Of a stretch of DNA of 64,000 nucleotides, positions 3,384-64,000 are shown piece by piece. The stretch comes from Escherichia coli (lineage in GTDB: Bacteria; Pseudomonadota; Gammaproteobacteria; Enterobacterales; Enterobacteriaceae), in the NCBI RefSeq assembly GCF_009931435.1, contig NZ_CP043414.1. The stretch is one strand, 5' to 3'. The notes under the pieces are model-generated. The model made no database searches, was not told the origin of the DNA, and saw nothing but the letters and a program-made list of their open reading frames with translations. Within the stretch, counting starts at the first letter, position 1; each line of letters opens with the position of its first letter. The translations under genes and the position numbers were made by a program.

Positions 3384-4037
3384 ATGAATCAGACGCTACT
3401 TTCCTCTTTTGGTACGCCTTTCGAACGTGTTGAAAATGCACTGGCTGCGCTGCGTGAAGGACGCGGTGTAATGGTGCTTGATGATGAAGACCGTGAAAAC
3501 GAAGGCGATATGATCTTCCCGGCAGAAACCATGACCGTTGAGCAGATGGCGCTGACCATTCGCCACGGTAGCGGTATTGTTTGCCTGTGCATCACTGAAG
3601 ATCGCCGTAAACAACTCGATCTGCCAATGATGGTAGAAAATAACACCAGCGCCTATGGCACCGGTTTTACCGTGACCATTGAAGCGGCTGAAGGGGTGAC
3701 TACCGGTGTTTCTGCCGCTGACCGTATTACGACCGTTCGTGCTGCGATTGCCGATGGCGCTAAACCTTCTGATCTGAATCGTCCTGGCCACGTTTTCCCA
3801 CTGCGCGCGCAGGCGGGTGGTGTGCTGACGCGTGGCGGCCATACCGAAGCGACTATTGATCTGATGACGCTGGCAGGCTTTAAACCAGCTGGTGTGTTGT
3901 GTGAGCTGACTAATGACGATGGCACGATGGCGCGTGCGCCAGAGTGCATTGAGTTTGCCAAGAAACACAATATGGCGCTCGTGACTATTGAAGACCTGGT
4001 GGCATACCGTCAGGCACATGAGCGTAAAGCTAGCTGA
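3384..4037 (+). CDS. ribB: 3,4-dihydroxy-2-butanone 4-phosphate synthase
   Basis: ORF track 217 aa; sequence recognised as RibB. Confidence 0.95.
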
Positions 4038-4071
4038 AAACCGCTGCTTAATTTACCGCGTTAATCAAGAA

Positions 4072-4104
4072 ACCGAAGCTATTACTGGCTTCGGTTTTTA
4101 TTTT
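4072..4104 (+). terminator. ribB intrinsic terminator
   Basis: Hairpin accgaagct...ggcttcggt followed by tttttatttt. Confidence 0.7.
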
Positions 4105-4299
4105 GCTCTTGTTATGCAAGATGTTAATTCCTCTTCTCTTTCTATGAGAAAATTTCATTAATATCAGGCATTCTTTTCCATTATGATCAAAATCATATAA
4201 TTGTTCCGTTATTATGCGACCATATGAATATATCCGAAAAAGGATATGTGAATTTTATGCGCTAAATGTTTAGTATTGTTAAATATTAAGGGTAAAAGG

Positions 4300-4527: not shown

Positions 4528-5301
4528 TTAACCAATTCCCGCCGTTTGTAGTAGCACTAAACTGAATCCCATCACTGACATTCCACATAGCACGCCATAG
4601 CTGGGGTTATTATTGGGGTCAATCTCTTTAGCTAGCGGCATTAATTCATCAACCGAGAGCGCCACCATAATTCCTGCAACCGCCGCCATGATTGCCGCCA
4701 TGACCACCGGAGAAATCATGCTACCGAGGATTAACCACGCCAGAACACCACCAAGAATTTCTGCCAGCCCAGAAATGCCCGCCCACAAAATTGCGGTGCG
4801 TTTTGACCCCGTTGCCGCGTAAACCGGCCCCGCAACTGCCAGACCTTCAGGAATATTATGCAATGCAACAGCCAGCGCGATGCCAAAGCCCAGCTCCAGG
4901 TTACTGCTCGCCGTGACAAAGGTGGCAATGCCTTCCGGGAAGTTATGCAGACTGATGCCGAGAGTGAGCAGAATGGCTGTGCGCTTGATCGATTTTGGCA
5001 ACGGCTGCACCGATTTTTGCATTAAATCCTGCGGATGCGCATGTGGCAACATGCGGTCCAGACCAAAATAGCCAAGCAGACCGAAGATAAACATTCCATA
5101 ACCCAGCACAGGCGACATTCCTTCGGCGGCTAATGCGGCAGGAAGCATTTCCATTAATGAGATGAGCAACATAATCCCCGCCGCAAATCCTAGCGAAAAC
5201 GCCAGTAAGCGGTTCGAGGGTTTTTGTCCGAGAACGCCGAGAAACGCGCCAATAAACGTGGCTGCCCCCGCCAGTATGGTCAGAATGAGAGGTACTGACA
5301 T
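4528..5301 (-). CDS. zupT: Zinc transporter ZupT (ZIP family), 257 aa
   Basis: ORF track frame; start chosen at [12 protein letters not shown]; processed length matches K-12 ZupT. Confidence 0.9.
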
Positions 5302-5443: not shown

Positions 5444-6232
5444 ATGTCTTCAACACGTATGCCAGCATTGTTTTTAGGTCACGGTAGTCCGATGAACGTG
5501 CTGGAAGATAATTTGTATACCCGCAGCTGGCAGAAGTTGGGGATGACATTGCCACGCCCGCAAGCGATTGTGGTGGTTTCGGCTCACTGGTTTACCCGTG
5601 GAACAGGAGTGACCGCGATGGAGACGCCGCCCACGATTCATGATTTTGGCGGTTTTCCGCAGGCGCTGTACGACACCCATTATCCTGCTCCGGGTTCGCC
5701 TGCGCTGGCACAGCGTCTGGTTGAGCTGTTAGCGCCGGTCCCTGTGACGCTGGATAAAGAAGCCTGGGGCTTTGACCACGGTTCCTGGGGCGTGCTGATT
5801 AAGATGTATCCTGACGCCGATATCCCGATGGTGCAGTTGAGTATCGACAGTACCAAACCTGCCGCCTGGCACTTTGAGATGGGGCGTAAACTGGCGGCTC
5901 TGCGAGACGAAGGAATAATGTTGGTCGCCAGCGGTAACGTGGTGCATAACCTGCGTACGGTGAAGTGGCACGGTGATAGTTCACCGTATCCGTGGGCGAC
6001 GTCATTTAATGAGTATGTGAAAGCGAATCTGACGTGGCAAGGACCGGTAGAGCAGCATCCTCTGGTGAATTATCTCGACCATGAAGGTGGCGCGTTATCG
6101 AACCCAACGCCAGAGCACTATCTGCCGTTGTTGTATGTCTTAGGTGCGTGGGATGGGCAGGAGCCAATTACCATTCCGGTCGATGGTATAGAAATGGGCA
6201 GTTTAAGTATGTTGTCGGTGCAGATAGGCTAA
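5444..6232 (+). CDS. ygiD: 4,5-DOPA dioxygenase extradiol-like protein YgiD
   Basis: ORF track frame (5417..6232); start chosen at MSSTRMPALFLGHGSP (262 aa); alternative start at 5417. Confidence 0.85.
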   Translation: MSSTRMPALFLGHGSPMNVLEDNLYTRSWQKLGMTLPRPQAIVVVSAHWFTRGTGVTAMETPPTIHDFGGFPQALYDTHYPAPGSPALAQRLVELLAPVPVTLDKEAWGFDHGSWGVLIKMYPDADIPMVQLSIDSTKPAAWHFEMGRKLAALRDEGIMLVASGNVVHNLRTVKWHGDSSPYPWATSFNEYVKANLTWQGPVEQHPLVNYLDHEGGALSNPTPEHYLPLLYVLGAWDGQEPITIPVDGIEMGSLSMLSVQIG

Positions 6233-8254: not shown

Positions 8255-9736
8255 TCAGTTACGGAAAGGGTTATGACCGTTACTGGTAGTCGTGCGTGCG
8301 GATGCTTGCTGAACGGCTGGGGCTGGGCTATCTGGTGCATAACCATCAGCAATAGCATTTTGTTCTGGCGTTTGCGGCGCAACGTTTTCTGGATTAGTGG
8401 AAACCGGTTTGCTCAGCGCATTGTTCAGTGCCAGCAGATCCTGCTCGTTCAACGTACCCAGAGCTGATTTAATATTCAACTGGTTAATCAGGTAGTTATA
8501 ACGCGCATTCGCCAACTCTTGCTTGGCGTTGTACAGCGTGGTGGTCGCATCCAACACATCAACAATGGTACGCGTACCGACCGAGTAGCCCGCTTCCATC
8601 GCGTCTAATGAGCTTTGAGCGGAAACTACGGCTTGTTTGTAGGCGTTAATGCTACTGATAGAAGCATTAATGTTGTTGAATGAGGAACGTACGGTTTGCA
8701 CGACGCTACGATGGGCGCTTTCCAGTTGCTCACTGGCACCAACAAAGTTGTACTGGGCCTGTTTCACCTGCGAGTTAACCATTCCGCCCTGATAAATCGG
8801 CAGCGAGAAGCTCAGGCCAACTTTGTTCTGGCCCATATTGCTATCGTCATACTGGGTACCAGCGGCACCACGGGTTTTCGAACCGCTATATGAGGTGTCA
8901 GAAATCCCGGTAGAAGCCGTTAAATCCAGAGTCGGTAAGTGACCATCCTGCGCCTGGCGAATTTGCTCGCGCGCCAGGTCTTGGCTCAAGCGTGCCTGTA
9001 ACAGCGACAGGTTGCGTTTTTCGGCTTCTTTCAGCAGCGCGTTAACCGGCTGCGGTTTGTCGGTTTTAAAGTTTTCGACATTCAGCGCCGCCAGTTCCGG
9101 ATAATAGTTACCGGTGATCTGACGCAGTTGCTCTACAGCGTTATCGAGGTTATTACGTGCGGTCACTTCATTCGCCAGCACGGTATCGTACTGTGCACGG
9201 GCGTTCTGCACGTCGGTGATCGCCACCAGGCCCACGTTAAAACGTTGAGTGGTTTGATCTAACTGACGGTAGATCGCTTCTTTTTGCGCCTGTGTATAGG
9301 AAAGAACGTCAATCGCATTCAACACGTTGAAATAAGCGGTCGCGGTGTTGAGGATCAAGGTTTGTTGATCGGTCTGATACGTGACGTCCTGAATACCCGC
9401 TGCTTTTTCCTGTAGCGTTAACGCACGCCATTTTGACATATCAAAAATGGATTGAGTTAACTGCAGGGACGCACTGGTCGCGTTAGAGTTGATGCCGTTC
9501 GCGTCGCGGTAGCCGTTGCTATAGGTGTAATCTGCACCTAAACCTAGCTGTGGCAGTAATGGACTGCGCGCTTCATTAATTTTTTCAAAGGCAGCATCAC
9601 GATCGGCGGCAGACTTACGCAATTCCGGGTTACTAAGGCGTGCTTGCTGATAAACTTGCATCAGGTTCTCGGCCTGGCTCAACGTACTGAACCCAGAAAG
9701 GCTCAGGCCGATAAGAATGGGGAGCAATTTCTTCAT
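8255..9736 (-). CDS. tolC: Outer membrane efflux channel TolC, 493 aa precursor
   Basis: ORF track frame; start at MKKLLPILIGLSLSGF; sequence recognised as TolC. Confidence 0.95.
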   Translation of the reverse strand: MKKLLPILIGLSLSGFSTLSQAENLMQVYQQARLSNPELRKSAADRDAAFEKINEARSPLLPQLGLGADYTYSNGYRDANGINSNATSASLQLTQSIFDMSKWRALTLQEKAAGIQDVTYQTDQQTLILNTATAYFNVLNAIDVLSYTQAQKEAIYRQLDQTTQRFNVGLVAITDVQNARAQYDTVLANEVTARNNLDNAVEQLRQITGNYYPELAALNVENFKTDKPQPVNALLKEAEKRNLSLLQARLSQDLAREQIRQAQDGHLPTLDLTASTGISDTSYSGSKTRGAAGTQYDDSNMGQNKVGLSFSLPIYQGGMVNSQVKQAQYNFVGASEQLESAHRSVVQTVRSSFNNINASISSINAYKQAVVSAQSSLDAMEAGYSVGTRTIVDVLDATTTLYNAKQELANARYNYLINQLNIKSALGTLNEQDLLALNNALSKPVSTNPENVAPQTPEQNAIADGYAPDSPAPAVQQASARTTTSNGHNPFRN

Positions 9737-23269: not shown

Positions 23270-24619
23270 TTACCAGCTTACTTTCGCCTCAAATCCACCT
23301 TGTTCCGCATTCCCAAACTCAACATTCATGCCATGCAGCTTGGCGATTCGCTGGACAATTGAAAGCCCAAGTCCACTGCCGGTAGCGGTTTGTCCGGGTG
23401 GGCGATAGAAGCGTTCGCCAATTCTCGCCAGTGCCTCTGGTGTCACACCGGGGCCGTTATCCCTCACGATGAAATTATCGGCATTCAGCGTGACGTCCAC
23501 CACGCTACCTTGTGGACTGTAGCGCACGGCGTTATCCAGCAAATTTCGCACCAACAAACTTAGCAATAGCGGTTGTCCGGTGCGTTTGATGCCGTGGGCA
23601 TTGAGTGTCAGTCGCACGTCAATTTTTGCCTGCTGCGCCGTGTGGTAAATATCCATCACCGACGATTGCAGGAGATCTTCAAGCGGGATCTCCGCGACGT
23701 CCTGAAGGTTATCCAGTGAGTCCAGCCGCGATAGCGTGAGCAGTTGATCAACCAGACGAGTAGCACGATCGATCCCGGAATGTAATTGGAGCAGCGCTTT
23801 TTTCCGCGCCTGCGGATCATCGTCAGAGAGCTGCGCAACTTCGGTTTGCACTTTCAGCGCCGTTAACGGGCTTCGTAGTTCATGCGCTGCGTCGGAGGTA
23901 AAGCGTCGTTCACGAACCATCATCGCATGTGTGCGGGCGAACAGTTGATTTAGCGACTCAACCAGTGGACGCACTTCGCTGGGTACGCCCGTCGCGTTTA
24001 GTGGTTTTTCCGAGTCAGGGTCACGCATACGTAGTGCCAGCGCCAGTTTGTTCAGCGGCGCGAGTTCACGACCCAGTAGTACCATCATGATGATTAACAT
24101 AATCGGCAGTGCGACAAGCCACGGGATCAATTGCCCGGCAACAATTGCCAGCGCCATGTCTTCGCGGTATTCCCATTCCTGACCAACAACGATGCGATAT
24201 TTGCCATCAGGTGAGGTCATCCAGACAAAACGCCAGGGATCGTCTTCACCGACCAGTTGCCCGTCAGCAAAACCTTCCCGTTGATAGCTATAGGGAATAT
24301 CTTCTCCGTTATCCCCATCATTAAGGACCATTCTGCCGTCGTGGGTAAAGATGGCAAAGGTCAGCGCATCGTCATCAACATGACCGTGTTTTAATTTATT
24401 TGGCGTCTGTGCCATGCGATCCGCCGCGTTGATTTCGTTGAGATCGAGCGTACTTAACCGTTTGGCAAACAGCATCAGTTGGGTGTCGAACAACTCATCG
24501 ACGTTATCCGTTGTTTGTTTCCAGGCGACAAAGCTGGAAAGCAGCCAGGTCACCGAGGCCAGAATTAAAAAGATTAGCGTCAGCCTGACTCGCAGACTAA
24601 GACGTTGGGTAAATTTCAT
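23270..24619 (-). CDS. qseC: Sensor histidine kinase QseC
   Basis: ORF track 449 aa; HisKA motif HELRSPL and HATPase region; overlaps qseB stop. Confidence 0.9.
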
Positions 24620-25275
24620 TTCTCACCTAATGTGTAGCCAATACCATGAACGGTACGAATAAAATCACTGCCGAGTTTGCGTCGCAGATGATGTACATGC
24701 ACTTCAACGGCATTACTGGTGACCTCTTCGTCCCAGGTATACAGTTTCTCTTCAATCAGTTTGCGCGGCAGTACCCGACCAGCGTTACGCATCAGTAATT
24801 CCAGCAGGGCAAATTCTTTTGGTTTCAGCGTTAAGGGTTCGCCAGCCAGCGTGGCGATACGTTTGCCGGGGTCGAGCATGACGTTACCGTGGCGCAGCTC
24901 GTTGCTGGCCTGGCCGTTGGTTCGGCGCATCAGAGCTTCCAGCCTGGCGGCGACTTCTATCAACGCAAAAGGTTTACACAGATAATCGTCAGCTCCCAGA
25001 CGCAGCCCTTCTACACGTTCCGCCAGCGCATCGCGCGCAGTCAGGATTAATACCGGCTCACGCTGACCTTTTTCTCGCCATTCGCGCAAAATATCGCGAC
25101 CATCCATGCCCGGTAAGGTTAAATCCAGGATCACCGCATCATAAGGTGCGCTATATAGCGCCTCTTTTCCCTGACGACCTTGTGTAAACCAGTCGACGCT
25201 AAAACCCATTTTACTAAGGCCCGTTTTGATGCCGTCGCCAATCAGCATGTCATCTTCTATCAGTAAAATTCGCAT
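24616..25275 (-). CDS. qseB: Response regulator QseB (OmpR family)
   Basis: ORF track 219 aa; receiver domain plus winged-helix. Confidence 0.9.
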
Positions 25276-25426: not shown

Positions 25427-25819
25427 ATGAAAAAATTCGCAGCAGTAATCGCAGTAATGGCCCTGTGCAGTGCACCGGTGATGGCAGCAGAGCAGGGCGG
25501 TTTTTCTGGTCCATCGGCAACACAAAGTCAGGCCGGAGGATTCCAGGGGCCGAATGGCAGCGTAACGACCGTAGAAAGCGCAAAATCCCTGCGTGATGAC
25601 ACTTGGGTCACCCTGCGCGGCAATATCGTTGAACGTATCTCTGACGATCTCTACGTGTTCAAAGATGCCAGCGGTACTATCAATGTTGATATCGACCACA
25701 AACGCTGGAACGGCGTGACGGTGACCCCGAAAGATACCGTTGAGATTCAGGGTGAAGTCGATAAAGACTGGAACTCTGCTGAAATTGACGTCAAACAGAT
25801 CCGCAAAGTAAATCCGTAA
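25427..25819 (+). CDS. ygiW: BOF/OB-fold periplasmic stress protein YgiW (VisP)
   Basis: ORF track frame; start at MKKFAAVIAVMALCSAPVMA (signal peptide), 130 aa. Confidence 0.85.
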   Translation: MKKFAAVIAVMALCSAPVMAAEQGGFSGPSATQSQAGGFQGPNGSVTTVESAKSLRDDTWVTLRGNIVERISDDLYVFKDASGTINVDIDHKRWNGVTVTPKDTVEIQGEVDKDWNSAEIDVKQIRKVNP

Positions 25820-25871: not shown

Positions 25872-26354
25872 ATGAAAAACCTGACACTGGATGTAAATAT
25901 TATCGATTTCCCATCAATCCCTGTGGCGATGTTGCCACATCGCTGTAGCCCTGAATTGCTCAACTACAGCGTGGCGAAATTTATCATGTGGCGTAAAGAA
26001 ACGGGGCTTTCTCCTGTTAACCAAAGCCAGACTTTTGGTGTCGCCTGGGATGACCCTGCCACCACCGTACCGGAAGCGTTTCGCTTTGATATCTGCGGCA
26101 GCGTTAACGAACCGATTCCCGATAATCGTTATGGCGTGAGTAATGGTGAACTTACCGGTGGACGTTATGCCGTGGCCCGCCACGTTGGCGAGCTGGACGA
26201 TATTTCACATACGGTATGGGGCATCATTCGCCACTGGCTGCCTGCAAGCGGCGAGAAAATGCGTAAAGCACCGATTCTGTTTCACTACACCAATCTTGCC
26301 GAAGGGGTAACAGAGCAGCGACTGGAAACGGATGTTTATGTGCCGTTGGCGTGA
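25872..26354 (+). CDS. ygiV: GyrI-like / AraC-effector-binding domain protein YgiV
   Basis: ORF track 160 aa; position downstream of ygiW. Confidence 0.8.
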   Translation: MKNLTLDVNIIDFPSIPVAMLPHRCSPELLNYSVAKFIMWRKETGLSPVNQSQTFGVAWDDPATTVPEAFRFDICGSVNEPIPDNRYGVSNGELTGGRYAVARHVGELDDISHTVWGIIRHWLPASGEKMRKAPILFHYTNLAEGVTEQRLETDVYVPLA

Positions 26355-26462
26355 TGAAGAATCTTTACCGGAGTGTGAGCCAAATCACTCGCGATAAGTT
26401 TGAGCGAACAATGCCACAGGCGTATTGTTGTTGGGCTTATAATTTCTCCGGTAAGGAATACC

Positions 26463-28070
26463 ATGTATACGCGAAATTTATTATGGCTGGTCAGCCTGGT
26501 AAGTGCGGCTCCTCTCTACGCTGCTGACGTTCCCGCCAACACACCGCTCGCCCCGCAACAAGTCTTTCGTTACAACAATCATAGCGACCCAGGTACGCTC
26601 GACCCGCAAAAGGTGGAGGAGAATACTGCCGCGCAGATTGTGCTGGATCTGTTTGAAGGTCTGGTATGGATGGACGGTGAAGGCCAGGTGCAGCCCGCTC
26701 AGGCTGAACGCTGGGAGATACTGGACGGCGGCAAGCGCTATATTTTCCATCTGCGTAGAGGTTTGCAGTGGTCAGACGGTCAGCCTCTGACGGCAGAGGA
26801 TTTTGTCCTCGGCTGGCAGCGCGCGGTTGACCCGAAAACGGCAAGCCCTTTTGCTGGCTATCTGGCACAGGCGCACATTAACAATGCCGCGGCTATTGTT
26901 GCGGGTAAAGCAGATGTTACATCGCTGGGTGTCAAAGCGATGGATGATCGTACTATTGAAGTTACGCTTGAGCAGCCGGTTCCTTGGTTCACGACGATGC
27001 TCGCCTGGCCGACGCTGTTCCCGGTTCCCCATCATGTAATCGCGAAATATGGCGATAGCTGGAGTAAGCCTGCGCATATGGTTTACAACGGTGCCTTTGT
27101 GCTTGATAAATGGGTAGTTAACGAAAAGATTACTGCACGCAAAAATCCAAAGTACCGCGATGCGCAACATACGGTATTGCAACAGGTTGAGTATCTGGCG
27201 CTGGATAATTCGGTCACCGGCTATAACCGCTATCGCGCGGGAGAGGTCGATCTCACCTGGGTTCCGGCACAGCAAATTCCTGCCATTGAAAAATCACTGC
27301 CTGGCGAGCTACGAATTATCCCGCGTCTGAACAGCGAATATTACAACTTTAACCTTGAGAAACCGCCATTTAACGATGTGCGGGTGCGTCGGGCGCTATA
27401 TCTTACGGTTGATCGACAGCTTATTGCGCAAAAGGTACTGGGGTTGAGAACGCCCGCAACCACGCTGACGCCGCCAGAGGTAAAAGGCTTTAGCGCGACG
27501 ACGTTCGATGAACTGCAAAAGCCAATGAGTGAGCGTGTCGCGATGGCAAAAGCCTTGCTGAAACAGGCGGGATACGACGCCTCTCATCCGCTACGCTTTG
27601 AGCTGTTCTACAACAAGTACGATCTGCATGAAAAAACCGCGATAGCGTTGTCTTCCGAATGGAAAAAATGGCTGGGTGCACAGGTGACGCTGCGCACAAT
27701 GGAGTGGAAAACCTATCTTGATGCCCGACGAACCGGTGATTTCATGCTGTCTCGGCAGTCGTGGGATGCGACGTACAATGATGCTTCCAGCTTTCTGAGC
27801 ACGCTCAAAAGCGATAGTGAAGAAAACGTCGGTCACTGGAAAAATGCGCAGTATGACGCCTTACTAAACCAGGCCACGCAGATCACTGATGCGACAAAGC
27901 GTAATGCGTTGTATCAGCAGGCAGAAGTAATCATCAACCAGCAGGCACCGCTGATTCCTATCTACTATCAGCCGTTAATCAAACTGCTTAAACCCTACGT
28001 TGGCGGTTTTCCGCTGCATAATCCCCAGGATTATGTCTACAGCAAAGAGTTGTATATCAAGGCACATTGA
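26463..28070 (+). CDS. ygiS: Periplasmic solute-binding protein YgiS (OppA/DppA family), 535 aa
   Basis: ORF track frame; start at ATG 26463 (MYTRNLLWLVSLVSAAPLYA signal peptide) with SD. Confidence 0.85.
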   Translation: MYTRNLLWLVSLVSAAPLYAADVPANTPLAPQQVFRYNNHSDPGTLDPQKVEENTAAQIVLDLFEGLVWMDGEGQVQPAQAERWEILDGGKRYIFHLRRGLQWSDGQPLTAEDFVLGWQRAVDPKTASPFAGYLAQAHINNAAAIVAGKADVTSLGVKAMDDRTIEVTLEQPVPWFTTMLAWPTLFPVPHHVIAKYGDSWSKPAHMVYNGAFVLDKWVVNEKITARKNPKYRDAQHTVLQQVEYLALDNSVTGYNRYRAGEVDLTWVPAQQIPAIEKSLPGELRIIPRLNSEYYNFNLEKPPFNDVRVRRALYLTVDRQLIAQKVLGLRTPATTLTPPEVKGFSATTFDELQKPMSERVAMAKALLKQAGYDASHPLRFELFYNKYDLHEKTAIALSSEWKKWLGAQVTLRTMEWKTYLDARRTGDFMLSRQSWDATYNDASSFLSTLKSDSEENVGHWKNAQYDALLNQATQITDATKRNALYQQAEVIINQQAPLIPIYYQPLIKLLKPYVGGFPLHNPQDYVYSKELYIKAH

Positions 28071-28207: not shown

Positions 28208-30466
28208 ATGAGCGATATGGCAGAGCGCCTTGCGCTACATGAATTTACGGAAAACGCCTACTTAAATTACTCCATGTACGTAATCATGGACCGTGCGTTG
28301 CCGTTTATTGGTGATGGTCTGAAACCTGTTCAGCGCCGCATTGTGTATGCGATGTCTGAACTGGGACTAAATGCCAGCGCCAAATTTAAAAAATCGGCCC
28401 GTACCGTCGGTGACGTACTGGGTAAATACCATCCGCACGGCGATAGCGCTTGTTATGAAGCGATGGTCCTGATGGCACAGCCGTTCTCTTACCGTTATCC
28501 GCTGGTTGATGGTCAGGGGAACTGGGGCGCGCCGGACGATCCGAAATCGTTCGCAGCAATGCGTTACACCGAATCCCGGTTGTCGAAATATTCCGAGCTG
28601 CTATTGAGCGAGCTGGGGCAGGGTACGGCTGACTGGGTGCCAAACTTCGACGGTACTTTGCAGGAGCCGAAAATGCTACCTGCCCGTCTGCCAAACATTT
28701 TGCTTAACGGCACCACCGGTATTGCCGTCGGCATGGCGACCGATATTCCACCGCATAACCTGCGTGAAGTGGCTCAGGCGGCAATCGCATTAATCGACCA
28801 GCCGAAAACCACGCTCGACCAGCTGCTGGATATCGTGCAGGGGCCGGATTATCCGACCGAAGCGGAAATCATCACCTCGCGTGCCGAGATCCGTAAAATC
28901 TACGAAAATGGTCGCGGTTCTGTGCGTATGCGCGCGGTGTGGAAGAAAGAAGACGGTGCGGTGGTTATCAGCGCATTGCCGCATCAGGTTTCTGGTGCGC
29001 GCGTACTGGAGCAAATTGCTGCGCAAATGCGCAACAAAAAGCTGCCGATGGTTGACGATCTGCGCGATGAGTCTGACCACGAGAACCCGACCCGTCTGGT
29101 GATTGTGCCGCGTTCCAACCGCGTGGATATGGATCAGGTGATGAACCACCTCTTCGCAACCACCGATCTGGAAAAGAGCTATCGTATTAACCTCAATATG
29201 ATCGGTCTGGATGGGCGTCCGGCGGTGAAAAACCTGCTGGAAATCCTTTCCGAATGGCTGGTGTTCCGCCGTGATACCGTGCGCCGCCGTCTGAACTATC
29301 GTCTGGAGAAAGTCCTCAAGCGCCTGCATATTCTGGAAGGTTTGCTGGTGGCGTTTCTCAATATCGACGAAGTGATTGAGATCATTCGCAATGAAGATGA
29401 ACCGAAACCGGCGCTGATGTCGCGCTTTGGCCTCACGGAAACTCAGGCGGAAGCGATCCTCGAACTGAAACTGCGTCATCTCGCCAAACTGGAAGAGATG
29501 AAGATTCGCGGTGAGCAGAGTGAGCTGGAAAAAGAGCGCGACCAGTTGCAGGGCATTTTGGCTTCCGAGCGTAAAATGAATAACCTGCTGAAGAAAGAAC
29601 TGCAGGCAGACGCGCAAGCCTACGGTGACGATCGTCGTTCGCCGTTGCAGGAACGCGAAGAAGCGAAAGCGATGAGCGAGCACGACATGTTGCCGTCTGA
29701 ACCTGTCACCATTGTGCTGTCGCAGATGGGCTGGGTACGCAGCGCTAAAGGCCATGACATCGACGCGCCGGGCCTGAATTATAAAGCGGGTGATAGTTTC
29801 AAAGCAGCGGTGAAAGGCAAGAGTAACCAACCGGTAGTGTTTGTTGATTCCACCGGTCGTAGCTATGCCATCGACCCGATTACGCTGCCGTCGGCGCGTG
29901 GTCAGGGCGAACCGCTCACCGGCAAATTAACGTTGCCGCCTGGGGCGACCGTTGACCATATGCTGATGGAAAGCGACGATCAGAAACTGCTGATGGCTTC
30001 CGATGCGGGTTACGGTTTCGTCTGTACCTTTAACGATCTGGTGGCGCGTAACCGTGCAGGTAAGGCTTTGATCACCTTACCGGAAAATGCCCATGTTATG
30101 CCGCCGGTGGTGATTGAAGATGCTTCCGATATGCTGCTGGCAATCACTCAGGCAGGCCGTATGTTGATGTTCCCGGTAAGCGATCTGCCGCAGCTGTCGA
30201 AGGGCAAAGGCAACAAGATTATCAACATTCCGTCGGCAGAAGCCGCGCGTGGCGAGGATGGTCTGGCGCAACTGTACGTTCTGCCGCCGCAAAGCACGCT
30301 GACCATTCATGTTGGGAAACGCAAAATTAAACTGCGTCCGGAAGAGCTACAGAAAGTCACTGGCGAACGTGGACGCCGCGGTACGTTGATGCGCGGTTTG
30401 CAGCGTATCGATCGTGTCGAGATCGACTCTCCTCGCCGCGCCAGCAGCGGCGATAGCGAAGAGTAG
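28208..30466 (+). CDS. parC: DNA topoisomerase IV subunit A
   Basis: ORF track 752 aa; GyrA/ParC family sequence. Confidence 0.95.
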
Positions 30467-35252: not shown

Positions 35253-35290
35253 GTGAAATGTGCCCGGCAGCAATGATGCTGCCGGGAAAT

Positions 35291-35521
35291 TTATAACCTT
35301 GGTTTATAAGGACTGTTACGAACGTCTAAGCGGTAATGCGCTCTTGCTGTTTCGTCTTTAACTTGCTGAATTTCCGGACGCAGGGCGTCAATATCCTGTT
35401 GCAGTTGATTAATTTTGTTATTCAATGCCTGAATATCATGTTCCAGGTGTTCAATTTTGGCATTGCTGGTACAGCCAGCAAGACACAGCGCCAGCGGAAT
35501 GGATAAGATAAGTTTGTTCAT
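35291..35521 (-). CDS. Lpp-like coiled-coil lipoprotein (second copy)
   Basis: Start at MNKLILSIPLALCLAGC (lipobox LAGC) then Lpp-like heptad region; begins 17 nt after yqhH stop. Confidence 0.55.
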   Translation of the reverse strand: MNKLILSIPLALCLAGCTSNAKIEHLEHDIQALNNKINQLQQDIDALRPEIQQVKDETARAHYRLDVRNSPYKPRL

Positions 35522-35538
35522 TATGAATTCCAGAACCG

Positions 35539-35796
35539 TCATTCCGCATACATACGCAAGCAGCGCAGGCAATCAAAATAGTCCTGAGCATCAAGACGCG
35601 TATTGGCTCTGTTAGCGTCGGATTTGGCAGCATAGATTTGTGGGCGTAATGCTTTCATATCCTGCTCAAGCCGGGCGATTTTGGCATTTAATGTTTGCAC
35701 ATTGCTCGCCAGCTGATTGACCTTTTGCTCATTGACGCAGCCACTGAGCAAGCAGGTTGCCAGAACAACAGCCCCCACGGTGAAAATCGTTTTCAT
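35539..35796 (-). CDS. yqhH: Lpp-like outer membrane lipoprotein YqhH
   Basis: ORF track 85 aa; [20 protein letters not shown] lipobox; Lpp-like coiled coil. Confidence 0.8.
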
Positions 35797-43611: not shown

Positions 43612-43712
43612 TGCCTGATGCGCTACGCTTATCAGGCCTACAAAATCTATCGCAAGGTATTGAATTTGCATGAATTTGTAGGCCGGATAAGGCGTTCACG
43701 CCGCATCCGGCA
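43612..43712. repeat. REP/BIME palindromic units downstream of exbD
   Basis: gcctgatgcgctacgcttatcaggcctac and tgtaggccggataaggcgttcacgccgcatccggca, typical REP sequences. Confidence 0.75.
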
Positions 43713-61914: not shown

Positions 61915-63270
61915 TTGGCGGGGTTTAACATCAAACATTGGTTTGCAGATGGCGCGTTTCGCACCATTATTCGCAATAGCGCCTGGTTAGGCTCCAGTAA
62001 TGTCGTGAGCGCTTTGCTGGGTCTGTTGGCGCTCTCGTGTGCCGGTAAAGGGATGACGCCCGCCATGTTTGGCGTACTGGTGATTGTGCAATCGTACGCC
62101 AAGTCGATCAGCGATTTTATTAAGTTTCAGACATGGCAGCTGGTGGTTCAGTACGGAACGCCAGCCTTGACCAATAATAATCCGCAGCAATTTCGCAATG
62201 TCGTCTCATTTTCCTTCTCGTTGGATATCGTCAGCGGCGCGGTGGCGATTGTCGGCGGCATTGCCTTACTCCCTTTTCTTTCCCATTCATTAGGTCTGGA
62301 TGACCAAAGCTTTTGGCTGGCAGCGCTGTATTGCACGCTCATTCCTTCAATGGCTTCCTCCACACCGACCGGCATTCTGCGTGCGGTAGATCGCTTCGAT
62401 TTGATTGCTGTACAGCAGGCGACGAAACCTTTTCTGCGCGCAGCGGGGAGCGTCGTAGCCTGGTATTTTGATTTTGATTTTGGTTTTGCGGGTTTTGTTA
62501 TTGCCTGGTACGCATCGAATCTGGTTGGCGGCACCATGTACTGGTGGTTTGCCGCGCGCGAATTACGCCGCAGAAATATCCATAACGCCTTCAAATTGAA
62601 TTTGTTTGAGTCTGCCCGACACATTAAAGGCGCGTGGAGTTTTGTCTGGTCAACCAACATTGCCCACTCCATCTGGTCGGCACGTAACTCGTGCAGCACA
62701 GTGTTGGTGGGGATCGTGTTAGGACCCGCTGCCGCCGGGTTATTTAAAATCGCCATGACATTCTTCGATGCCGCCGGAACGCCAGCGGGTTTACTGGGCA
62801 AAAGTTTTTACCCAGAGGTGATGCGTTTAGATCCGCGCACCACCAGACCGTGGTTGTTAGGCGTGAAGTCCGGTTTACTGGCGGGCGGAATCGGTATTCT
62901 GGTGGCGCTCGCGGTGTTGATCGTCGGCAAGCCGCTCATTTCGCTGGTGTTTGGCGTTAAGTATCTCGAAGCGTATGACCTGATTCAGGTGATGCTTGGC
63001 GCAATTGTGATTTCGATGCTGGGCTTCCCACAGGAGTCATTGCTATTGATGGCGGGAAAACAGCGCGCTTTTCTCGTGGCGCAAACCATCGCCTCAATCG
63101 GCTACATCGTATTGCTGTTCATGTTCTGTCATCTGTTTGGCGTGCTGGGGGCTGCATTTGCTTACTTCGGTGGGCAATGTCTGGATGTGGTGCTCTCGTT
63201 AATTCCAACCTTAAAGGCATTTTTTCAGCGCCATTCCTTGCTTTATAACGCAGCCGGAGAGAAATCCTGA
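61915..63270 (+). CDS. yghQ: Polytopic inner membrane protein YghQ (flippase/MOP-like)
   Basis: ORF track 451 aa from TTG; many TM helices; actual start codon uncertain. Confidence 0.65.
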   Translation: MAGFNIKHWFADGAFRTIIRNSAWLGSSNVVSALLGLLALSCAGKGMTPAMFGVLVIVQSYAKSISDFIKFQTWQLVVQYGTPALTNNNPQQFRNVVSFSFSLDIVSGAVAIVGGIALLPFLSHSLGLDDQSFWLAALYCTLIPSMASSTPTGILRAVDRFDLIAVQQATKPFLRAAGSVVAWYFDFDFGFAGFVIAWYASNLVGGTMYWWFAARELRRRNIHNAFKLNLFESARHIKGAWSFVWSTNIAHSIWSARNSCSTVLVGIVLGPAAAGLFKIAMTFFDAAGTPAGLLGKSFYPEVMRLDPRTTRPWLLGVKSGLLAGGIGILVALAVLIVGKPLISLVFGVKYLEAYDLIQVMLGAIVISMLGFPQESLLLMAGKQRAFLVAQTIASIGYIVLLFMFCHLFGVLGAAFAYFGGQCLDVVLSLIPTLKAFFQRHSLLYNAAGEKS

Positions 63271-64000
63271 TGATGAGAAAATATTTCCCGCTTGAGGCGA
63301 GCGAGCGTCTATTTATTGCAGTTGAAGAAGATGATGTCGTTGATGCGCAGGTCAGTTTACCGCCGACTATCGCAACAGGTTGTACCACCGAAATCATTCA
63401 TGATAATTACGCGTTATGCCTGCAATTCTGGCTGAATGGCGTTGATCGTCAGGAATTACTGCGTTTAATCCACAAACAAGCCAAAGGCGAGGGGCTTACG
63501 GCTGACGAGCGTAAACAGTTTAAATATATGCGGGCGCGTTATAAGCATCTACGTTTTGCCCAACGGTTGTATTTAAAAAAGCATCAGGCCGGATTTTTAT
63601 TTGGCAAAACGACCGTTTTTCTTGGACGTTTTCAGGACGGCTTTCGTAACGGTAAGAAAAATATTGTGTCGTTTTACGGCAACCTTTTACGGATTTATTT
63701 AAGCTCTCCGGTCTGGTTGTTGGTGAACTATTCATTACGCCATAGCCAGTTAGAAAGCGTAAGCGGTTTTATTGCCTATCGGCAAAAGCAAATGCACCTC
63801 CTGAAAGAGATTATTGCCAAACCACGGCTAACTGGCAGGGAATTTCATGATGTACGAAAAATAATCAGCCAGCAGGTTTCTTATTACGACACCCTAAGAT
63901 CGCTTGATCCTGAAAATAAAGAAGCGTTACAGATTTCCCGCTTCCTCGCCGCCATTAATGGCCTGATGGGGGATAAACACGACGACATGGTGGCGGATGA
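63270..64000 (+). CDS. Conserved hypothetical protein, partial (continues beyond window end)
   Basis: Open frame from ATG 63270 (overlaps yghQ stop in tgATG, SD ggagag) with no stop to position 64000; begins MMRKYFPLEASERLFIAVEEDD. Confidence 0.55.
   Translation, partial: MMRKYFPLEASERLFIAVEEDDVVDAQVSLPPTIATGCTTEIIHDNYALCLQFWLNGVDRQELLRLIHKQAKGEGLTADERKQFKYMRARYKHLRFAQRLYLKKHQAGFLFGKTTVFLGRFQDGFRNGKKNIVSFYGNLLRIYLSSPVWLLVNYSLRHSQLESVSGFIAYRQKQMHLLKEIIAKPRLTGREFHDVRKIISQQVSYYDTLRSLDPENKEALQISRFLAAINGLMGDKHDDMVAD

Follow-up and report, generated by a model that had tools for sequence, protein, structure and literature searches.

The ygiV–ygiS junction of a divergent Escherichia coli lineage: a probable ancestral site without mqsRA

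Gene order at the ygiV–ygiS junction

In the window, the 64-kb stretch of Escherichia coli DNA analysed here (64,000 nucleotides), ygiV is followed directly by ygiS within a run of core genes (Table 1). The initial annotation had put about 108 bp between the two genes, too short for mqsR or mqsA, and the spacer is exactly 108 bp. It had also placed the MqsR/MqsA toxin–antitoxin module at this junction in K-12. This is correct: NC_000913.3 has the order ygiV, mqsR, mqsA, ygiS, and alignment of the window with K-12 puts the module at exactly the ygiV–ygiS junction. The K-12 module (YgiU/YgiT, b3022/b3021) has the same address as the spacer, and its flanks are collinear with the window. By alignment and blastn, both flanking genes of the empty site are intact and the breakpoints are sharp.

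Table 1. Features at and around the ygiV–ygiS junction (positions in the window)
Feature	Position	Strand	Description
qseC	23270-24619	-	Core gene upstream; ORF collinear with K-12; so annotated in the closest genome
qseB	24616-25275	-	Core gene upstream; ORF collinear with K-12; so annotated in the closest genome
ygiW	25427-25819	+	393-bp match in all compared loci; annotation
ygiV	25872-26354	+	Left flank; intact, 160 aa; 98.1% amino acid identity to K-12 YgiV
ygiV–ygiS spacer	26355-26462	+	108 bp; unoccupied, very probably ancestral, mqsRA integration site
AAGAA	26357-26361	+	5 nt, exchanged for the 927-bp mqsRA cassette in K-12; from alignments and blastn breakpoints
ygiS leader/promoter block	26362-26462	+	Conserved; equals the K-12 sequence downstream of the mqsA terminator
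ygiS	26463-28070	+	Right flank; intact, 535 aa, periplasmic substrate-binding protein; 98.3% amino acid identity to K-12
parC	28208-30466	+	Core gene downstream

The mqsRA cassette of K-12

Pairwise alignment and blastn give the same breakpoints. K-12 MG1655 (NC_000913.3) matches the window up to position 26356, where left-hand homology ends (…GGCGTGATG), and again from 26362, where right-hand homology restarts (TCTTTACCGGAG…). Between these points K-12 has 927 bp (NC_000913.3 3167820-3168746), whereas the window has the five nucleotides AAGAA. The K-12 cassette is made up of a promoter region of about 200 bp, mqsR, mqsA, and a terminator-like end. Two MqsA operator palindromes (ACCT-N3-AGGT; ACCTAAAAGGT on the record strand) lie in the promoter region, at 8576-8592 and 8608-8624 of the K-12 locus (L001). 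After mqsA a stem-loop followed by a T-run, read from the sequence, resembles a terminator. The terminator scan did not report this stem-loop and T-run; a terminator downstream of mqsA is listed in a table of PMC5120126. The GC content of the cassette is 41.1%, compared with 52-53% in ygiV and ygiS. No convincing target-site duplication or terminal inverted repeats were found at the ends of the K-12 cassette. Its insertion point is directly upstream of the conserved ygiS leader, which is left intact in K-12.

The window was searched for traces of this cassette with tblastn at E up to 10 and with blastn at word size 7, and chance-level matches only were returned. For K-12 MqsR (an ORF of about 98 aa, RelE-like RNase toxin), the best tblastn match in six frames of the 64-kb window had E=1.5 over 7 aa. 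For MqsA (about 131 aa, with an N-terminal zinc-binding part and a C-terminal HTH), the best match in the window had E=1.7 at an unrelated position. No remnant of cassette DNA was found by blastn in the 64-kb window. The operator motif ACCT-N2-4-AGGT does not occur in the spacer (26355-26462). The rest of the window holds two matches to it, none near the locus, against 1.2 expected by chance, and orphan MqsA operators were rejected for want of enrichment. The 108-bp spacer is therefore free of mqsR, mqsA, and operator by tblastn, blastn, and motif scan; for the two genes the initial annotation had said the same. Set against K-12, the window lacks mqsR, mqsA, the operator palindromes, and the mqsA terminator, and carries what is very probably the pre-insertion sequence.

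State of the junction in sister species

The polarity of the difference was read from outgroups. When one genome of each GTDB species was scanned with a YgiV peptide pattern, five loci came up, all Escherichia; Salmonella and Citrobacter were not recovered. Escherichia albertii, Escherichia whittamii, and SCPM-O-B-8794 all have ygiV, a spacer of about 108 bp, and ygiS, with no mqsRA, and are 88-93% identical to the window. SCPM-O-B-8794 is labelled E. coli, yet at this divergence (88-93%) it is taken to be another species, a non-coli Escherichia. The sister-species junctions read TGA-nn-GGGA(A)-TCTTT(A/T)CCGG, and the homologous window sequence is TGATG-AAGAA-TCTTTACCGG. The filler at 26357-26361 is AAGAA in the window, GGGAA in other empty-site E. 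coli, and GGGA/GGAAT-like in the sister species. The same arrangement as in the window is found in Nissle 1917, which we take to be a phylogroup B2 strain, and in O157:H7. The latter is a phylogroup E strain, an assignment given for EDL933 in PMC7167474.

The empty site in the sister species, Nissle 1917, and O157:H7 makes it the ancestral state for the genus and the K-12 state derived. The initial annotation had described an absence. The module is indeed missing relative to K-12, but this framing obscures which state came first: an empty site is ancestral, and it is also what the majority of genomes have.

Distribution of mqsRA among complete E. coli genomes

Population frequencies were taken from 5426 complete RefSeq E. 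coli genomes with a 200-bp query that has the junction at its midpoint. The empty junction gives an unbroken match in 3123/5426 genomes (58%); elsewhere the query splits into two half-length places, as it does in 2300 genomes. K-12 mqsRA DNA is present in 2298/5426 (about 42%). No copy falls below 99% identity or lies off the chromosome. The median is one place per genome, and copies interrupted by IS elements are among those in the few genomes that have two. A blastn search sensitive to about 65-70% identity returned the same 2298 of the 5426 genomes and added none, at a sensitivity that very divergent MqsR-family modules such as mqsRAC would escape. Empty-site (3123) and mqsRA-positive (2298) genomes together make up 5421/5426. 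This near-perfect partition means that, at the population level, empty-site genomes do not carry the module elsewhere.

These counts bear on whether MqsR/MqsA, or a diverged module of the MqsR family (mqsRAC, for example), sits outside the window on the chromosome or a plasmid of this strain. The inspected sequence covers 64 kb of the genome, MqsRA-family modules occur on plasmids of other Enterobacterales, and some E. coli carry a separate mqsRAC system (PMC9519451). However, the 2300 split junctions match the 2298 mqsRA genomes and the 3123 empty ones are the rest, no mqsRA place falls on a plasmid in the 5426 genomes, the more sensitive blastn search adds none, and the 64-kb window has no mqsRA match. 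The closest relative, 2020CK-00188, also has an empty junction, and by the matching counts an mqsRA copy elsewhere in 2020CK-00188 is unlikely. From the population counts we infer that this strain has no mqsRA copy elsewhere in its genome, and give relocation only a slender chance. Loss of the module from the sequence by mis-assembly or collapse at the junction has nothing specific in its favour and is hardly credible: the same unbroken junction recurs in 3123 complete genomes, each assembled independently, and in the sister species, and ygiV and ygiS are both intact.

The occupied allele, for its part, is uniform. In 14/14 sampled carriers the distance covered by the two flank pieces is exactly 2015 bp, so that all have a net insertion of 922 bp, and the flank haplotypes of these 14 are near-identical to each other and 98.2-98.3% identical to the window. 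The identical span and near-identical flanks fit one insertion event followed by inheritance. With its atypical GC, identical junctions, and very low diversity, the occupied allele looks foreign and monophyletic. That the insertion happened once is suggested by the identical junctions and the identity of the cassettes rather than by a phylogeny.

A probable ancestral site and the case for secondary loss

We conclude that 26355-26462 is very probably the ancestral, never-occupied ygiV–ygiS intergenic region, and that mqsRA of K-12 is a horizontally acquired insertion. This reading draws on four observations made here: where the breakpoints lie, how frequent each state is in the population, what the outgroups carry, and how low the GC of the cassette is.

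The site could also have been emptied a second time, mqsRA having been present and then either deleted almost precisely or replaced by an empty allele through homologous recombination. Over a 1093-bp junction query the window is 98.3% identical to mqsRA-positive haplotypes, compared with 95.9-97.7% for most of the other genomes with an empty site. On its right flank, 26362-26562 matches K-12 at 100%, and frequent recombination in E. coli would make a swap to the empty allele mechanistically easy. The right flank is, however, part of a leader that is very conserved in all Escherichia. The AAGAA filler is kept, equal in length and homologous to the GGGAA of other empty alleles and of the sister species, which argues against deletion of the cassette because a deletion would not recreate the filler. 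No cassette remnant was detected in the window. In a 12-kb comparison all genomes but one reach at most about 97.3% identity to the window; its identity to K-12 is 95.4-96.9%, and so it is not close to the mqsRA-positive group. We therefore regard secondary loss as very unlikely.

For a never-occupied site, events can be proposed as follows. A 927-bp cassette consisting of an autoregulated promoter, mqsR, mqsA, and a terminator would have been acquired horizontally. A single insertion, in the ancestor of one haplotype group of E. coli to which K-12, B, C600, and H10407 belong, would have replaced the 5 nt that directly precede the conserved leader of ygiS. The lineage of the window, a divergent E. 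coli, would never have received it, and the same would hold for B2, E, and the sister Escherichia species. Between ygiV and ygiS this strain has no MqsR RNase toxin, MqsA repressor, or mqsA terminator. ygiS therefore follows ygiW-ygiV without a break and keeps its conserved leader.

Comparison with known toxin–antitoxin loci

Chromosomal type II toxin–antitoxin (TA) modules of E. coli are accessory, horizontally transferred, and intergenic between core genes (PMC7167474, PMC5120126). Passages of these two papers that cite Fiedoruk et al. 2015 and Ramisetty & Santhosh 2016 describe them as uneven across phylogroups. The published presence/absence pattern, a promoter/operator and two ORFs of atypical GC between core genes, is one that mqsRA fits. 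The cassette does have a terminator, whereas PMC5120126 quotes the generalisation 'no terminator'. What goes beyond the published pattern here are the exact breakpoints, the counts in 5426 genomes, and the outgroup polarity; otherwise there is no material difference. A B2 AIEC strain has been explicitly reported to be without MqsRA (PMC7232551). The absence of mqsRA in this strain is an ordinary, already documented accessory-gene presence/absence polymorphism.

Relatives of the module are found on plasmids of other bacteria. MqsRA-family modules on plasmids of Rahnella, Pectobacterium, Yersinia, and Pseudomonas have about 66-73% DNA identity to it. Two plasmid matches at 100% and 99.8% were set aside; one is a record of 4.9 Mb that is filed as a plasmid, the other an E. 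coli plasmid of 354 kb, and the true relatives are those at 66-73%. The K-12 cassette had no match in the phage genomes searched.

A second E. coli system has a toxin and an antitoxin of the same families. MqsRAC of E. coli C496_10 (Vassallo et al. 2022, PMC9519451) combines an MqsR-family toxin with an MqsA-family antitoxin and is likewise accessory in the pangenome. It differs in being a diverged tripartite system with a SecB-like chaperone, MqsC, and in lying at another locus; it was not detected in the window. The reported phage-defence activity belongs to the chaperone-dependent MqsRAC of C496_10, and not to the K-12 module or to YgiS (PMC9519451). An identification of YgiS with MqsC was rejected, since MqsC is the SecB-like chaperone of MqsRAC in strain C496_10.

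The initial annotation further held that absence of MqsA would change a regulatory network in this strain. This is doubtful, as it rests on a contested regulon (PMC6918082). Regulation of rpoS, csgD, and cspD by MqsA was not reproduced in the independent study of Fraikin et al., who suggest that polar effects on the neighbouring ygiS may have confounded earlier work (PMC6918082).

K-12 should not be taken as the reference state at this locus, where mqsRA is in all probability a derived insertion in about 42% of complete genomes. Since only that share carries the module, the phenotypes attributed to MqsR/MqsA in K-12 (biofilm, bile, and rpoS/csgD control, all disputed) are not species-wide.

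The ygiS leader

The part of the spacer to the right of the insertion point is the more constrained. By blastn, 26362-26562 of the window has 100% identity to K-12. The spacer/leader is 93-95% identical to the sister species, compared with 86-91% for the flanking coding sequences. Such conservation suggests a selected promoter or leader of ygiS. The ygiS Shine-Dalgarno sequence AAGGA falls within a 12-nt inverted repeat (26362-26373 / 26446-26457), which pairs the first bases past the insertion point with the Shine-Dalgarno region. The leader is predicted to fold at -40.8 kcal/mol with z = -3.05, and a hairpin of this kind could sequester the ygiS Shine-Dalgarno sequence. Among six Escherichia sequences the hairpin showed no compensatory pairs. 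A covarying leader structure was accordingly rejected, and support for a structure comes from conservation and a z of about -3. A perfect TATAAT can be read at 26436-26441; the consensus promoter scan of the spacer returned no full promoter. An Rfam scan of the spacer and its flanks gave no family at E up to 1.

Loss of ygiS and three allelic states

In 1354/5426 genomes ygiS itself is replaced. These keep its first 22 bp and its last 42 bp, with 236 bp of unrelated filler between them. The filler lies between ygiV and parC, at 4614-4849 of the 2014C-4135 locus (L002) and likewise in the IAI1 locus (L014), and takes the place of about 26485-28028 of the window. All 1354 genomes are without mqsRA; they include 2014C-4135 and IAI1, which we take to be the B1 reference strain. 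The filler is single-copy, not being repeated elsewhere in E. coli genomes, and matched no Rfam family at E up to 1. Its start was considered as a group II intron, which was rejected for lack of Rfam support.

The complete genomes can be sorted into three allelic states. The ancestral state, with an empty site and intact ygiS, is found in about 1769 genomes (33%). The state with mqsRA accounts for 2298 (42%), and an empty site with ygiS replaced for 1354 (25%). These three states offer a possible natural control for polar or read-through effects on ygiS. We infer rather than observe any effect of the missing cassette on ygiS transcription.

Different internal deletions of ygiS are present in Escherichia sp. 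MOD1-EC7003 (5554-5925 of locus L005) and Escherichia sp. E1V33 (3716-4143 of locus L007). Decay of ygiS has therefore occurred at least three times independently, all three in mqsRA-less backgrounds, and essentially all of the approximately 2298 mqsRA-positive genomes retain the gene. ygiS seems prone to loss. YgiS has been reported to promote deoxycholate uptake. One could suppose that ygiS is costly and that lineages have responded in either of two ways, by gaining mqsRA or by losing ygiS, and that the leader acts as a cis-regulatory RNA that silences ygiS read-through where neither has happened. We consider this improbable. It is heavily confounded by phylogeny, with one event per clade and a young mqsRA-positive clade, and the link between MqsR, ygiS, and bile was not reproduced (PMC6918082).

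Strain background and other differences from K-12

The window is 95.4-96.9% identical to K-12 and belongs to a divergent E. coli lineage. When 12 kb were compared with the 5426 complete genomes, 2020CK-00188 matched at 99.2% and all others at 97.3% or less. The lineage may be a rare phylogroup or a cryptic clade.

Several other segments of the window differ from K-12. A 7.3-kb segment between parE and ygiN (14343-21649) is absent from K-12. It encodes a TonB-dependent siderophore receptor (14411-16552, minus strand), an ABC ATPase, two FecCD-type permeases, and a substrate-binding protein (19709-20719) that is intact in the window and frameshifted in 2020CK-00188. Its MurR/RpiR regulator ORF has 230 aa in the window, compared with 295 aa annotated in 2020CK-00188. 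At about 2705-2780 the window is without the K-12 fimbrial operon ygiL-yqiGHI (NC_000913.3 3185070-3191710, about 6.6 kb), and glgS stands almost directly before the ubiK side.

At 35269-35539 about 270 bp cannot be aligned to K-12. An ORF there (35291-35572, minus strand) encodes an extra small Lpp-like lipoprotein adjoining yqhH. In 2020CK-00188 its annotation is 'LPP leucine zipper domain-containing protein', and it seems to be a YqhH paralogue. Homology to K-12 ends at 62989, where K-12 has IS5 adjoining yghQ, and 62989-64000 is absent from K-12. Finally, about 100 bp around 43612-43712, between yghA and exbD, align twice to K-12, pointing to either a small duplication or a difference of the REP type.
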